This document shows, piece by piece, positions 56,934 to 62,715 of a DNA stretch of 64,000 nt; the first letter of the stretch is position 1, and each line of letters opens with the position of its first letter. The notes beneath the pieces are model-generated. The model had not been told where the DNA came from and searched no databases. It worked only from the letters and a program-made list of their open reading frames with translations. The position numbers were made by a program, and so were the translations under genes. The stretch is from an uncultured delta proteobacterium (GTDB lineage Bacteria > Desulfobacterota > Binatia > Bin18). The stretch spans positions 22,589 through 86,588 of the forward strand of contig CAVTCR010000063.1 in NCBI GenBank assembly GCA_963733195.1, read 5' to 3'.

Positions 56934-58003
56934 AAGCAAAGAAAAAGCCGATATTCGACCAGCCTGAAGACTTTCTCCCTGCTGCGGCAGTGGAACCAGA
57001 GACAGGTGGGGATAGGCCCGATGATCACGTTGAGGGCTCACTCCGCCCACGGTCGCTGGCTGATTACATTGGCCAGGAAGGCGTCAAACAAAATTTGCGT
57101 ATCGCTATTGATGCCGCCAAGCAGCGCGGTGATGTCCTTGATCACACTTTGTTTTGCGGTCCACCAGGACTCGGCAAGACATCAATGGCCCACATCATCG
57201 CACGCGAGATGGAGGTCAACATCCACGCGACTACTGGCCCAGTGATTGAGCGGCCTGGTGATATCGCGGCGATTCTCACGAACCTCGACACAGGAGATGT
57301 CCTCTTTATCGACGAGATCCATCGCCTCAACCGAGTTGTTGAAGAACTTCTCTATCCAGCGATGGAAGACTTTCAGCTTGATCTTGTGGTAGGGCAGGGG
57401 CCGTCGGCACGGACAGTGAAACTTGATCTGAAACGCTTTACTTTAGTTGGGGCAACGACCAGGGCTGGGTTACTCACCTCACCACTTCGCGATCGATTTG
57501 GTTCGACGTTTCGCCTTGATTTCTATCAAGTGGCGGATTTGGAGAAGATCATTCGCCGCTCGGCTGCGATTCTTGATTTGGCGATTGATGCGAGTGGTAC
57601 TGCAGAAATTGCGCGCCGTTCTCGTGGGACGCCTCGGATTGCGAATCGTTTATTACGTCGAGTACGGGATTTTGCGCAGGTGAAAAATCACAAGGTAGTT
57701 CATCGGGACGTTGCGCATGAAGCGTTGGCTTTACTCGAAGTCGATGAGGTTGGTTTTGACAAAATGGACCGCGCCATTCTTCTCACGATCATCGAAAAGT
57801 TTAATGGTGGACCGGTGGGAGTAGAGACAATCGCTGCGGCCATTGGAGAAGAGAAGAGCACTGTAGAAGATGTCTATGAACCCTACCTTATTCAAGAAGG
57901 CTACTTGCAACGGACGCCGCGTGGGCGACTGGCCACGTTGCAAGCGTACCGTCATTTCGGTATGACGCGGCCTGATGGTGGTTCTCAAGGACAACTCTTC
58001 TAA
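56930..58003 (+). CDS. ruvB: Holliday junction DNA helicase RuvB
   Basis: [46 protein letters not shown]. Confidence 0.95.
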
Positions 58004-58013
58004 GGAGTCCTGT

Positions 58014-58226
58014 ATGGCAGAACTGGGTAAATTTTTGATCATTGCTGGTGGGCTGTTGGTGGGTGTTGGTGTATTGTTCCTGCTCGGAGGTAAGTTGCCC
58101 TGGCTTGGGCGGTTGCCGGGCGACATCGTCGTTCAGCGGGAAAATTTTTCCTTCTACTTCCCTTTAGCCACGAGTATTCTCGTGAGCGTGGTCCTGTCGC
58201 TGCTCTTTGCCCTCCTACGTCGTTAG
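58014..58226 (+). CDS. DUF2905 family small membrane protein
   Basis: LPWLGRLPGDIVVQRENFSFYFPLATSILVSVVLSLL. AAGGAG RBS precedes the ATG at 58014. Confidence 0.7.
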   Translation: MAELGKFLIIAGGLLVGVGVLFLLGGKLPWLGRLPGDIVVQRENFSFYFPLATSILVSVVLSLLFALLRR

Positions 58227-58238
58227 AGAGAGACCTGG

Positions 58239-60569
58239 GTGGATAAACAATACCACGACGTGCCGGACGAACACGGACGGCGTCTGTACTGGGAAGCGGC
58301 GATCATCCTCGCGACAGCACTGGCGGTTGTGCTCCTTGCCTTTTCATTGACGCGCCTTCCGCAACTGAGTGATACGCACAATTTGGCGGGAAATGCGGTT
58401 TTCGTCCTCTTAATCAACCTCAATATTGTCCTTCTCATTCTCCTTGTTTTCCTGGTTGCCCGTAATCTCATCAAATTGTTTTATGACCGTCGCCGAAAGT
58501 TGCTAGGTGCACACCTGCGATTTCGCCTGGTCTCTGCGTTTGTCGCTATTGCCCTCTTTCCGGCTATCTTGCTTTTTCTTGTCGGTACGGCCGTGATGTC
58601 TCGTTCGCTAGAAAGTGTGTTTACGAACCAGGTCGAGAAGGCTCTCGAAGGATCGCTTGCGGTTGTTAGCACTTTTTATGATTTATTAGAAGGCGAAGCG
58701 GTCTCGCAGGCACAGACACTCGCAACGGAGATTGCACAGAACGAGTTGCTTACTCCAGAACGTCGGCAAGCACTGCAGGATTTAGTCGAGACACGCCGAT
58801 CGATGCTGCACCTCGGGCGCGTTATGGTGCTGTCGCCCGAGCGGACTGTGCTGGCGAACGCTACTATCGCGGAGCTGCAGACCCGAGAACGAAGCGGTCT
58901 TGAAGCCAGAACGTTAGATCGCGTATTCCGCCGCGAAAGCCTCCGTGAGGTCCGCTCTGCAGAGAATGGGCAGACAGAGGTGGTGTTAGGAGGAGTTCCG
59001 GTTATTGTCCAGAATGACGTTCTCGGTGCAGTCATCGTCGAGTACTTTGTGCCACGGAGTATTGCCCAGCAAAGTTCACAGGTAGTGAACGCTTTTCGCG
59101 AATATTTGCATCTCCGGATCCTCAAACATCCGATGAAGACAAACTACATTGTCACTATGTCGCTGGTGACACTTGTGGCGGTGTTCTCTGCGGTATGGTT
59201 AGGGTTATTCTTAGCAAAAAAAATGACCGTGCCCTTACAGCGCCTGGCTGCGGGGACGCGCGAGGTCGCACAGGGACATTGGACGTATCGTATTGAAGGT
59301 GAGGACGAAGATGAGATCGGTACGCTTGTAGCGGCCTTCAACCGGATGACGGGAGAACTCCAACTCAGTCACCAAGAGCTTGAAGCACGGCGACGATACA
59401 TGGAGACCGTGTTGGCAAATATTACTGCAGGGGTGGTTACATTGGATCGCCATGGGGTAGTGACCACGATGAATCCTGCGGCTGAACGTCTCCTCGGTAT
59501 CATGGCTACTGAAGCAATTGGGCAAGAGTATCACGAGGTCTTTCCGCTTCCCGACTTTGACGAAGTCCGGCGCATGGTGGGTGAGTTACTGTCGGTCTCG
59601 GTCAACGGCACGAGTGACAAAGTGAGTGCGAGCCTGGGACAGATGAAGCTCAGACGAGAAGGGCACGTCATGTCATTGGTGATGACTGGAGCGTTACTAA
59701 CGGATGAACAGCACGACGTTCTTGGTACAGTGTGTTTCTTTGAAGACGTGACCCAGATTGTTCGTGTCGAACGGATGGAGGCATGGCGCGAGGTGGCACG
59801 ACGTATTGCGCATGAAATCAAAAATCCGTTGACGCCTATTCAACTTGCTGCCCAGCGATTGCATCGACGATTCGCACCCCAGATCACGACGAACGCTGAA
59901 GTTTTCAATGAGTGCGTAAGCAGTATCGCGCATGAAGTCGATGCTATTAAGAAACTCGTCAATGAATTTTCTACTTTTGCGCGATTGCCTACTGCCGAGT
60001 ATGCGCCTGAGAATCTCAATGTTCTCATCCAAGAAGTGATCCCGGTCTTTACTGAGGCCCACCGAGATATTGCCTTTGTCTTCTCCCCTGGCAAAGACCT
60101 TCCTATGCTCGAGGTTGACCGCGAAGGGATGAAACGCATCGTACGTAACCTCCTAGATAACGCTGTTGCCGCGTGTCATGCCGTGCAGAATGGCCAACAA
60201 CACCGAATCTCGATCAGCACGCGATTGCTCTGGTCTATCGGGATCATACAGTTAGAAGTTGCCGATTCCGGGTGTGGTATACCGCCAGAGGTGAAAGATC
60301 GTTTATTTGAACCATATTTCTCGACCAAGAAAGAAGGAACGGGCTTAGGACTCGCGATTGTGGCAACGATTGTCGCTGACCATCAAGCCTTCATTCGTGT
60401 CCGCGACAATCATCCTAAAGGGAGCCGGTTCATTATTGAACTCCCAGCTCGTCGGAAAGCCCAACGGACCCAGATCGCCAACGTGTCGTCGAGGTCGGTG
60501 TTGAATGGGACCAAAGGAAAAGGGGAAGAAGGAGAATGGTATGGAAGAGACCATTTTGGTGGTGGATGA
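58239..60569 (+). CDS. NtrY-like sensor histidine kinase (TM - HAMP - PAS - HisKA - HATPase)
   Basis: N-terminal TM helices, a HAMP-like segment, H-box RRIAHEIKNPLTPIQL, N box RNLLDNA, and G boxes DSGCGIP and GTGLGLAIV. Confidence 0.85.
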   Translation: MDKQYHDVPDEHGRRLYWEAAIILATALAVVLLAFSLTRLPQLSDTHNLAGNAVFVLLINLNIVLLILLVFLVARNLIKLFYDRRRKLLGAHLRFRLVSAFVAIALFPAILLFLVGTAVMSRSLESVFTNQVEKALEGSLAVVSTFYDLLEGEAVSQAQTLATEIAQNELLTPERRQALQDLVETRRSMLHLGRVMVLSPERTVLANATIAELQTRERSGLEARTLDRVFRRESLREVRSAENGQTEVVLGGVPVIVQNDVLGAVIVEYFVPRSIAQQSSQVVNAFREYLHLRILKHPMKTNYIVTMSLVTLVAVFSAVWLGLFLAKKMTVPLQRLAAGTREVAQGHWTYRIEGEDEDEIGTLVAAFNRMTGELQLSHQELEARRRYMETVLANITAGVVTLDRHGVVTTMNPAAERLLGIMATEAIGQEYHEVFPLPDFDEVRRMVGELLSVSVNGTSDKVSASLGQMKLRREGHVMSLVMTGALLTDEQHDVLGTVCFFEDVTQIVRVERMEAWREVARRIAHEIKNPLTPIQLAAQRLHRRFAPQITTNAEVFNECVSSIAHEVDAIKKLVNEFSTFARLPTAEYAPENLNVLIQEVIPVFTEAHRDIAFVFSPGKDLPMLEVDREGMKRIVRNLLDNAVAACHAVQNGQQHRISISTRLLWSIGIIQLEVADSGCGIPPEVKDRLFEPYFSTKKEGTGLGLAIVATIVADHQAFIRVRDNHPKGSRFIIELPARRKAQRTQIANVSSRSVLNGTKGKGEEGEWYGRDHFGGG

Positions 60570-61812
60570 TGAGGAGAAAATTCGCTCGACCCTACGAGGC
60601 GTATTAAGTGACGAAGGGTATCGAGTGCTCGATACCGACGGTACTCCTAATGTGTTGGCTATGGTAGCAGTACAGCGACCACGGCTCGTACTCCTTGATA
60701 TTTGGATGCCACAGGTTGATGGGATTGAATTACTCGAACGCTTGAAGGCGCAAGAGCCCGAACTCCCAGTGATTGTGATGTCGGGGCATGGCACGATTGA
60801 GACCGCCGTGCGTGCGACGAAGCTTGGCGCTGCTGATTTCATTGAGAAACCTTTCTCCTTGGAGACGCTCTTGCGTTCCGTACATCGCGCGACTGGACGC
60901 TCGACTGCTGAGAACCTTACAGAAAATGGTGCGACAACCGTACTCGAAGAAGCCCACACGATCTCGTACCGACAGCGACAGAGACGTGCGCGAACGATCA
61001 AGCAGAGTGTCGTCATTCACGGGCATGGACTTCACTCCGGTGTGCGTACCGGGGTCATTCTCCATCCCTTGCCGCCAGGGAGCGGAATTGCGTTCAGTGC
61101 GATCTCCGCACCGGATGTGATGATCCCAGCGACGGTAGAGTATGTTGACTCAACGGGATATGCCACTAGTCTTTGTCGCGATGGGGTAACAGCCCAGACG
61201 ATCGAACATCTGATGTCGGCCCTCCATTCCTACGGCCTCACCAACGTGTTGGTAAAAATGCAGGGGGAAATCCCAATTCTTGACGGGTCGGCTCTGGAGT
61301 TCTGCCAACTGCTTGAAGGTGCCGGAGTTGTCGAGCAAGCGGAGAAGATTGAACCCGTGGGTATTGATAAGACGTACCGTGTAGGTGACCCACAGTCAGG
61401 AAAATTTTTGCAGATCGAACCTGCCAAATATTTTGCGGTGCACTATACGCTGAAATATCCAGAGCCTGTTGGATGTCAGGAGTACTCTTATGTTCACCGT
61501 GATATGCAGAGTTACCGCGAGGAGATCGCTCCCGCGCGGACCTTTGGCTTTGTGAAAGACGTCCAGATGCTTGAGCAAATGGGACTCGCCAATGGGGGAC
61601 GGCTGAACAATTGCGTCCTCATTGGTGAACAGGGAGTGATTAACCCACCGTTACGTTTCCCTGATGAGCTCGTCCGCCATAAGATTCTGGACTTGATGGG
61701 AGATCTCTATCTGCTCGGTCGTCCGATCCATGGCAAGGTCACAGCCAGTTGCACAGGACATACAGACAACATTGCTCTGGTCCGTGCAATTCGAGAAGGG
61801 ATGAAGCTCTGA
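60541..61812 (+). CDS. lpxC: Receiver domain fused to UDP-3-O-acyl-GlcNAc deacetylase (REC-LpxC)
   Basis: NtrC/NtrX-type REC (ILVVDDEEKIR, LVLLDIWMPQVDG, VIVMSGHG, FIEKPF) is continuous with LpxC (TIKQSVVIHGHGLHSG, TIEHLMSAL, ARTFGF, HKILDLMGDL, CTGHTDN). There is no stop or frame change between the two domains. Confidence 0.85.
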   Translation: MEETILVVDDEEKIRSTLRGVLSDEGYRVLDTDGTPNVLAMVAVQRPRLVLLDIWMPQVDGIELLERLKAQEPELPVIVMSGHGTIETAVRATKLGAADFIEKPFSLETLLRSVHRATGRSTAENLTENGATTVLEEAHTISYRQRQRRARTIKQSVVIHGHGLHSGVRTGVILHPLPPGSGIAFSAISAPDVMIPATVEYVDSTGYATSLCRDGVTAQTIEHLMSALHSYGLTNVLVKMQGEIPILDGSALEFCQLLEGAGVVEQAEKIEPVGIDKTYRVGDPQSGKFLQIEPAKYFAVHYTLKYPEPVGCQEYSYVHRDMQSYREEIAPARTFGFVKDVQMLEQMGLANGGRLNNCVLIGEQGVINPPLRFPDELVRHKILDLMGDLYLLGRPIHGKVTASCTGHTDNIALVRAIREGMKL

Positions 61813-61882: not shown

Positions 61883-62497
61883 CTAATCGGTGACTTCTAA
61901 ACGTGACCCCATGAGTTCTTCCAGCAGGCTCTTAGCCTCTTGCAAATCTTTCGTATCAAACCCTTCGGTGAACCAGTTATAGATCTCAGATAACGTGGTG
62001 CGTGCTGCGTGGTGCTTGCCTTGTCGCTGCCACAGGCGGGCAAGGCTCACTGTCGCGCGCAACTCTAGCGACTTCGCTTGTTGTTGCGAGCAATCTCAAT
62101 GGCTTTGTGAAAACATGCTTCGGCTTCGGCTGCTGGGAGTTGGGAGTTGGGATTTAGGATTTGGAATTTTTGACTTTTGCGCTTTGCCTTTTGTCTTTTG
62201 ACTTTCCTGCTGAAGCGTCAGCTCGCCTTTCAGCCGATACAGCTCAGCCTCCCAGAAATGCTCCCCAGTTCTATCCACTGTAGCCAACGCCTCGGCCAGT
62301 GCAGTCAACCCTTCCTCTATCTGTCCGATTTCTCCGTACGTCTCTGCCAGGAGCGCGAGGAAGTATGACTGAAATAGCTCTGCTCCCATAGCTCGGCAGA
62401 GGGCAAGACCTTGGTGTATGCGTGCCAGCCCTTCTTTTTCCTTTCCTTGTCTGGCTAATGCCCAACCTCGTAGGACAGTCGCCCACGCCCGGCTCAT
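61883..62497 (-). pseudogene. 5'-truncated, frameshifted paralog of the TPR tail of the cyclase/AAA/TPR gene
   Basis: SRAWATVLRGWALARQGKEKEGLARIHQGL...EAELYRLKGELTLQQ, then [14 protein letters not shown], then [58 protein letters not shown], in three frames. Confidence 0.7.
62118..62208. repeat. 13-unit heptamer array (GCTGGGA GTTGGGA GTTGGGA TTTAGGA TTTGGAA TTTTTGA CTTTTGC GCTTTGC CTTTTGT CTTTTGA ...)
   Basis: Read from the sequence. It occupies the same position in the paralog as array 31102..31192 but has different unit sequences. Confidence 0.85.
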
Positions 62498-62715
62498 GGC
62501 AGCGAGCGGCCTAATACCTTGAGCGCTTCGCCCCGTAACAGCGCGATCGTTTCACTTAACTCCACTAGCGCCTCTAACTCTTCCCGCTCGGCGGCACTGA
62601 GTTCTCCTTCGGTGTTGCGGTCCATCAGATCTTGGAGCTTGGCATTGAGCTTGGGCGAGAAGCGGAACTCTGCGACTGAGGTCACCAGTTCCACCGGCGT
62701 GGCGATTGTCTCCAT
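62494..62715 (-). CDS. Hypothetical 73-aa acidic helical protein
   Basis: METIATPVELV...GELSAAEREELEALVELSETIALLRGEALKVLG. Its stop overlaps the first codon of the truncated TPR fragment. No family assigned. Confidence 0.45.
   Translation of the reverse strand: METIATPVELVTSVAEFRFSPKLNAKLQDLMDRNTEGELSAAEREELEALVELSETIALLRGEALKVLGRSLP

Follow-up and report, generated by a model that had tools for sequence, protein, structure and literature searches.

We analysed a window of 64,000 nucleotides (nt) from an uncultured delta proteobacterium of the Binatia (contig CAVTCR010000063.1, positions 22,589 to 86,588), a candidate class of which, to our knowledge, no member has been cultured. The window encodes a protein in which an NtrX-type receiver domain (REC) is fused to a complete LpxC deacetylase, and the gene for this fusion lies immediately downstream of a gene for an NtrY-like membrane sensor histidine kinase. 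LpxC carries out the committed step in the synthesis of lipid A, controls the flux through it and is a major target for antibiotics; only in a few proteobacteria is its regulation understood, and there it depends on proteolysis or on protein partners. The fusion protein is the sole LpxC found in its genome and is conserved throughout the class together with the kinase. Judged from its sequence it appears to be a response regulator with an enzymatic output, and what is new is that this output is the enzyme for the committed step towards lipid A.

The frame 60505 to 61812 is unbroken (435 amino acids, aa), with no stop codon or frameshift between the receiver and LpxC parts. Pfam family PF03331 (LpxC) matches the protein with 283.5 bits (cut-off 27) over profile positions 2 to 266 of 268, and the NCBIfam equivalog TIGR00325 (lpxC) gives 248.6 bits against a cut-off of 187.25. 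Open reading frame, Pfam and TIGR00325 thus agree with the initial annotation, which had described a receiver running without interruption into a full LpxC, and all motifs named there are in place (DDEE at residue 21, LLDIWMP at 63, TIEHL at 232, HKILDLMGD at 392 and TGHTDN at 417; residue numbers refer to the 435-aa numbering unless the 423-aa form is named). The true start is probably ATG 60541, which corresponds to M13 and yields a 423-aa product, because an AAGGAG sequence lies 6 nt upstream and because most homologues are 423-428 aa long and begin MEETILVVDDEE. When started there, the fusion gene overlaps the end of the kinase gene (stop codon at 60567-60569) by 29 nt, which suggests translational coupling. 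The last approximately 30 residues of the kinase (60475-60569, after about residue 745) are unconserved, and the alignments of many relatives cross a stop codon in this part; the tail seems to exist only through the overlap with the start region of the fusion gene. Scans for terminators and consensus promoters between 57800 and 62200 revealed nothing useful.

Features of the REC-LpxC locus, and candidate promoters in two related loci. Positions are those of the window unless a locus is named.
Feature	Position	Strand	Remarks
DUF2905 small membrane protein	57975..58226	+	83 aa; PF11146, E 6.2e-23; directly upstream of the kinase
NtrY-like sensor histidine kinase	58239..60569	+	776 aa; membrane/periplasmic N-terminus, then four Pfam domains
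Kinase HAMP	59208-59363	+	Pfam, above cut-off
Kinase PAS	59400-59750	+	Pfam, above cut-off
Kinase HisKA	59784-59987	+	Pfam, above cut-off
Kinase HATPase_c	60117-60452	+	Pfam, above cut-off
Shine-Dalgarno AAGGAG	60529..60534	+	within the 3' end of the kinase gene, 6 nt before ATG 60541
REC-LpxC fusion gene	60541..61812	+	423 aa from M13 (probable start); open frame from ATG 60505, 435 aa
NtrX-type receiver domain	60553..60882	+	Pfam Response_reg, residues 17-126, E 2.3e-30
Variable linker, probably disordered	60883..60990	+	residues 127-162, about 35 residues
Complete LpxC deacetylase domain	60991..61812	+	Pfam LpxC, residues 163-429, E 2.3e-84
Candidate sigma-54 promoter	L012:6262-6277	-	sequence scan
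Candidate sigma-54 promoter	L013:6002-6017	-	sequence scan

The fusion gene is the single PF03331 match in its genome (6.9 Mb, 93% complete), in which LpxB and two LpxA-type genes are also present; the second lpxC that had been suggested as a check was not found elsewhere in this genome. To follow the architecture across the class, 41 genomes from 12 families and 26 genera were surveyed with a six-frame search. A full-length match to REC and LpxC was present in 39 of them, closed chromosomes included, with identities of 49-90%; the two genomes that gave no fusion match are 84-89% complete. A match to LpxC only was found in none of the 41 genomes. In all 39 genomes with the fusion, the kinase orthologue occurs once, immediately upstream and on the same strand, and no close relative has separate ntrX and lpxC genes at this place. 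Close homologues with a name carry the label Candidatus Binatia or, in older entries, Deltaproteobacteria. The fusion is neither a case of gene decay nor an assembly join. The initial annotation had allowed for a join, and this is contradicted by the presence of the same fusion in 39 independent assemblies.

Both domains look functional. Residue conservation was taken from an alignment of 41 diverse fusions, which are representatives of clusters formed at 50% identity. The LpxC residues E234, H235, T346 (serine in one sequence), H392, K393, D396, D400 and H419 are invariant in 41/41 fusions. Aligned with the Aquifex aeolicus enzyme and other solved LpxCs, H235, H392 and D396 are the zinc ligands and E234 and H419 the catalytic pair, as had been read from the motifs. 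The receiver has the acidic pocket D21/D22, the phospho-acceptor D65, S93, the switch aromatic F112 and K115. D65 is kept in 39 of the 41 fusions, serine or threonine at position 93 in all and K115 in 40; D22 is conserved in 39-41. The proposed NtrC/NtrX-type receiver with acidic pocket, phospho-acceptor, T/S and K could thus be recognised in the quintet D21, D22, D65, S93 and K115. Its best named matches are NtrX (NCBIfam NF051870) and the Brucella NtrX REC structures 4d6x and 5m7n. The match to the NtrX equivalog NF051870 covers the REC part only (131 bits against a cut-off of 600), and Pfam finds neither an AAA+ module nor a helix-turn-helix (HTH) domain in the fusion protein. The protein is a derivative of an NtrX-like regulator and not a member of NtrX.

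Comparison with orthologues from the same genus gave ratios of nonsynonymous to synonymous substitution rates (dN/dS) of 0.011-0.022 for REC, 0.026-0.038 for LpxC and about 0.18-0.20 for the linker; these values are approximate, as synonymous sites are near saturation. The receiver also has the lowest dN of the three parts. By these estimates REC is under stronger purifying selection than LpxC. The gap between REC and LpxC varies from 16 to 109 aa among short fusions.

An AlphaFold2 model of the 423-aa form has a mean predicted local distance difference test score (pLDDT) of 88.3 and a predicted template modelling score (pTM) of 0.87, and only the linker is disordered (residues 124-145 of this form, pLDDT <50). 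The receiver half of the model shows five beta-alpha units (DSSP). The LpxC half has the two-domain beta-alpha-alpha-beta fold of the enzyme and superimposes on A. aeolicus LpxC (5u86) with a target-normalised template modelling (TM) score of 0.94 and a root mean square deviation of 1.7 A over 278 columns. LpxC alone gives a query-normalised TM score of just about 0.61. Together with the pTM of 0.87, this predicts a defined packing of the receiver against LpxC. A search of the PDB with the model revealed no chain that spans both domains. The fusion protein ends directly after the catalytic fold, and its match to TIGR00325 stops at position 273 of 297; it therefore lacks the tail at the C-terminus in which the FtsH degron of Escherichia coli LpxC resides.

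The kinase has the domain order HAMP-PAS-HisKA-HATPase_c. NtrY_N matches its N-terminal part with 21.4 bits, slightly under the Pfam cut-off of 23.2, and the kinase reaches no NCBIfam equivalog cut-off; we use the name NtrY-like, given in the initial annotation, for the gene directly before the fusion. In nine genomes of other families, in which the fusion is not linked to a kinase gene, exactly one full-length kinase orthologue was found per genome (30-43% identity). These unlinked kinases are often preceded by DUF4390, and no receiver gene was found within about 3 kb of any of the nine, so that the slot usually taken by ntrX is empty. Phylum-level counts were taken from an even sample of 151 genomes, and examples of each state described below were verified on retrieved loci. 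In this sample a second receiver hit at E <= 1e-30 was found in 0/17 genomes with a short fusion (an approximate count, with 11 candidates scored per genome). Most genomes with a stand-alone lpxC have a second receiver hit, at 1e-38 to 1e-41 among the matches listed (likewise approximate). Since the two genes are adjacent in 39/39 genomes of the class and the unlinked kinases are orphaned of receivers, we infer that the kinase is the partner of the fused receiver, to which it would transfer phosphate.

Three states of lpxC were found in the 151 genomes: separate genes, long fusions and short REC-LpxC fusions. In the separate state, an ordinary lpxC (300 aa) has a kinase gene behind it on its own strand, and a regulator of 453-480 aa comes next. 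These kinases, from other families, are 37-41% identical to the window kinase over the full length, and the receiver of the regulator is 57-61% identical to the window receiver. The regulator keeps Walker A, GAFTGA, the Walker B DE, the arginine finger and HTH_8; by these motifs it is a genuine sigma-54 activator of the NtrC/NtrX type. The long fusions (690-837 aa) consist of REC, a sigma-54-type AAA+ module, a lid, a Fis-like HTH and LpxC. Their AAA+ module has no GAFTGA, Walker B glutamate or arginine finger and is therefore most likely dead as an ATPase; their HTH matches HTH_8 weakly. One long fusion of 710 aa (REC, an apparently dead AAA+, HTH_8, LpxC) belongs to a DUF4390-kinase-fusion operon on a contig of 3.9 Mb (L108:1-14133), where its neighbours are envelope-related, with LapA_dom, mutS, DUF4390 and the kinase upstream and purM, purN, lolA and an RseP-type M50 protease downstream. 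One further genome (G074) has a stand-alone lpxC directly upstream of an NtrY-like kinase with no regulator gene after it (L115:3630-6984), and also carries a divergent fused REC-LpxC on another contig (L021:2465-3781).

The top 150 cluster representatives (50% identity) comprised 21 clusters of short and 15 of long fusions. NCBI labels of the long form include Nitrospina sp., Nitrospinota and Deltaproteobacteria, and IMG names some of them NtrX. A search of contigs with the family alignment returned, among the matches listed, mainly ordinary LpxCs and NtrX-like receivers, and two further named fusions (CP070817.1 and CAWGPM010000002.1), both from metagenome-assembled genomes labelled 'delta proteobacterium'.

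In a tree of LpxC domains, 38 stand-alone LpxCs are split from the fused LpxCs by a branch with a Shimodaira-Hasegawa-like approximate likelihood ratio (SH-aLRT) of 100, and short forms are intermingled with long ones among the fused LpxCs. The exceptions are four apparent stand-alone LpxCs on the fused side: two are fragments at contig ends, one is a frameshifted fusion locus and one is genuine. The frameshifted locus (L119:900-4900, on an 89-kb ENA contig) has the order DUF2905-kinase-REC-LpxC; kinase and receiver are split over several frames and the gene caller gave the LpxC part only. Its frame breaks are either frameshift errors of long reads or those of a real pseudogene. The genuine one is a 283-aa LpxC beside STAS and YggT genes (L120:999-1850), which is nested in the fused clade next to P0152 and may be a secondary loss of the receiver. 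The tree with its interleaved forms fits one ancient fusion that was followed by repeated loss of AAA+ and HTH. The fusion is descended from an NtrX-like regulator that became fused to LpxC and whose AAA+ and HTH modules were lost later. This series from separate genes through long to short fusions is a clear case of a regulator merging with its own target, in which control would shift from the level of transcription to that of the protein.

Before the fusion arose, this two-component family was already tied functionally to lpxC, as seen from the clusters of lpxC, kinase and activator, by a promoter in two of these loci and by a mapped regulator target. In L012 and L013, where a stand-alone lpxC stands in front of the kinase and the sigma-54 activator, a sigma-54-type promoter (TGGCAT-N5-TTGCT) is located about 60 nt before this lpxC; in L012 it is the only site of such quality in the 8.5 kb locus. 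In Desulfovibrio vulgaris, the sigma-54-type regulator DVU2934 has lpxC as its single mapped target, and in Syntrophobacter fumaroxidans lpxC lies directly upstream of the operon orthologous to DVU2931/DVU2934 (PMC3333781).

We consider it rather probable that the kinase phosphorylates REC and that REC in turn modulates LpxC directly, where phosphotransfer, the effect on catalysis and its sign are all inferred. A response regulator would thus have a housekeeping enzyme, LpxC, as its output domain. The NtrY-like membrane kinase would sense an envelope or redox signal and phosphorylate D65, and the receiver, which sits on a flexible linker and is predicted to be packed on LpxC, would change the activity of LpxC directly. 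The receiver of CheB inhibits the enzyme by packing on its active site until phosphorylation relieves this inhibition; by analogy, the likeliest sign is that phosphorylation would activate LpxC by relieving autoinhibition. An activating sign is favoured because the same type of kinase has a sigma-54 activator as its partner beside lpxC in unfused relatives. Since NtrYX reduces the level of lpxC transcripts in the alphaproteobacteria Rhodobacter sphaeroides and Caulobacter crescentus (PMC7240162, PMC12444477), the sign could also be the opposite. A wider scenario, which we put forward tentatively and hold to be slightly less than an even chance, is that NtrYX-type envelope sensing, which in the ancestral state governed the transcription of lpxC by way of a sigma-54 activator, was short-circuited when regulator and target were fused, and that this replaced proteolysis by FtsH/LapB.

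Several observations speak against direct control by phosphorylation. Its sign is ambiguous, with NtrYX lowering lpxC expression and sigma-54 activators raising it. The LpxC is the sole and presumably essential one, and regulation therefore cannot be all-or-none. The five AlphaFold2 models range in pLDDT from 88 down to 78. The sigma-54 promoter was found in one family only, and the same scan upstream of lpxC in L014 and L015 gave none. Finally, the result that no LapB zinc-ribbon (PF18073) was found, which would favour such control, comes from a weak test, as this family has 28 positions and also matches Gram-positive control genomes.

An unlikely alternative, still to be taken seriously, is that the receiver sets the amount or the location of LpxC and not its catalysis, for instance as a phospho-degron or through contact of an adaptor with a protease, either of which would take the functional place of FtsH/LapB, by phospho-dependent dimerisation or by recruitment to the membrane. 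NtrX-type receivers dimerise, the linker is long, variable and disordered, and the fusion has no E. coli-type C-terminal tail; all of this would suit such a role. So would the finding that LpxC in studied bacteria is usually controlled through its stability (PMC12444477). The pTM of 0.87, however, predicts a compact packing of REC and LpxC and not a free receiver, and no gene for an adaptor or protease is linked to the locus. We think it quite improbable that the receiver is kept for another reason, as a phosphate sink for the kinase, a partner for folding or stoichiometry or a scaffold, with LpxC effectively constitutive. A sole LpxC must work under all growth conditions, and in several lineages the fusion gene adjoins no kinase, as this alternative would have it. 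But constraint within the protein is strongest in REC by its dN/dS, the D-D-D-S/T-K set is kept in nearly all members, and the linkage to the kinase is complete in the class, with the unlinked kinases having no other receiver alongside.

That the LpxC-like domain has acquired a new substrate and lipid A is made by an unrecognised enzyme is very improbable. The fused LpxCs do form a branch of their own and are about 35-42% identical to stand-alone LpxCs, but the equivalog cut-off of TIGR00325 is exceeded, the catalytic, zinc and substrate-contact residues that were checked are all invariant, the predicted fold matches LpxC closely, and the genome has LpxA and LpxB and no alternative LpxC. Hardly credible, finally, is that the fusion arose recently as a deletion chimera of ntrX and lpxC, or that it is a pseudogene or the product of an assembly join: the long relatives do show that an AAA+ and HTH module once stood between REC and LpxC, but the same short fusion is present in 39 independent assemblies from 12 families, with closed chromosomes among them, both halves are under strong purifying selection, the genome has no other lpxC and the loss of AAA+ is ancient and recurrent. 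The chimera proposed in the initial annotation therefore does not hold as a recent event, and survives in spirit as the ancient loss of the AAA+ and HTH module from an NtrX-like-LpxC fusion. Its main proposal, a receiver fused to an intact LpxC and paired with a membrane kinase, stands on the sole LpxC, the adjacency in 39/39 genomes, the conserved residues and the very low dN/dS, and the spread of the architecture that it had suggested to examine extends over 12 families of the class.

Upstream of the kinase gene lies the run yebC-ruvC-ruvA-ruvB-DUF2905, all on the same strand and with DUF2905 as the last gene. DUF2905 is also found upstream of the kinase in L026, L116 and L119. Downstream of the fusion gene, a 133-aa open reading frame with a weak match to TPR_12 is located on the minus strand (62096-62715); it is directly preceded by a 73-aa acidic open reading frame with no family match.

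No description of a receiver-LpxC fusion was found in the literature, where a passing mention in subscription literature or domain databases is possible. A 2025 review in the Journal of Biological Chemistry, 'The regulation of lipid A biosynthesis', brings up NtrYX solely as a regulator of transcription and nowhere contains the words 'receiver', 'response regulator', 'fused' or 'fusion' (PMC12444477). Domain databases certainly display this architecture, and in sequence databases the REC-LpxC proteins are entered simply as LpxC or NtrX. If the proposed mechanism is true, this would be direct two-component control of LpxC, a regulatory logic for outer-membrane biogenesis that is so far undescribed in any organism. 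One kinase and one fused enzyme would then also be a compact system for finding out which signal informs non-model diderm bacteria about the condition of their outer membrane.

The sole LpxC fusion that we found discussed in the literature is LpxC-FabZ/FabA. LpxC-FabZ (NF009667; bioRxiv 10.1101/2025.10.16.682753) is likewise a natural fusion of LpxC, but its partner is a metabolic enzyme at the C-terminus, and the window protein reaches 198.6 bits against the NF009667 cut-off of 465. In E. coli, LpxC is controlled by proteolysis through FtsH, LapB (YciM) and YejM; the variants of Pseudomonas aeruginosa and other species are reviewed in PMC12444477. The fusion differs from the E. coli type in that a degron tail is absent from its C-terminus and a LapB zinc-ribbon was not found (by the weak test above), and control would act by phosphorylation of the fused domain and not by proteolysis. 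DVU2931/DVU2934 of D. vulgaris Hildenborough is a two-component system whose regulator targets lpxC, and the place of lpxC before the orthologous operon in S. fumaroxidans matches the clusters of lpxC, kinase and activator; the likeness is one of arrangement and target. It differs in that control is transcriptional and exerted by separate proteins.

With CheB, PleD/WspR (REC-GGDEF) and RpfG (REC-HD-GYP) the fusion shares an N-terminal receiver, a flexible linker and a C-terminal enzyme. Its output is central envelope biosynthesis, in contrast to the signalling output of these regulators, and autoinhibition in the fusion is a proposal by analogy. A further close likeness is to NtrY/NtrX of Brucella, R. 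sphaeroides and C. crescentus, a group to which Bordetella PlrSR also belongs together with its partner DUF4390. The window system shares with it the order HAMP, PAS, HisKA and HATPase of the kinase behind a membrane and periplasmic N-terminus, and the best named match of the receiver. The long relatives are full NtrX-like proteins, with an AAA+ module without GAFTGA, a Fis-type HTH and operons of DUF4390, kinase and regulator, a typical layout for NtrYX. NtrY/NtrX has moreover already been tied to the envelope and to lpxC expression (PMC7240162, PMC12444477). The window kinase differs from NtrY in that its NtrY_N match is below the cut-off and that it is preceded by DUF2905 and not by DUF4390. 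NtrX is a DNA-binding transcription factor, whereas the window protein has neither AAA+ nor HTH and has the enzyme itself as its output.

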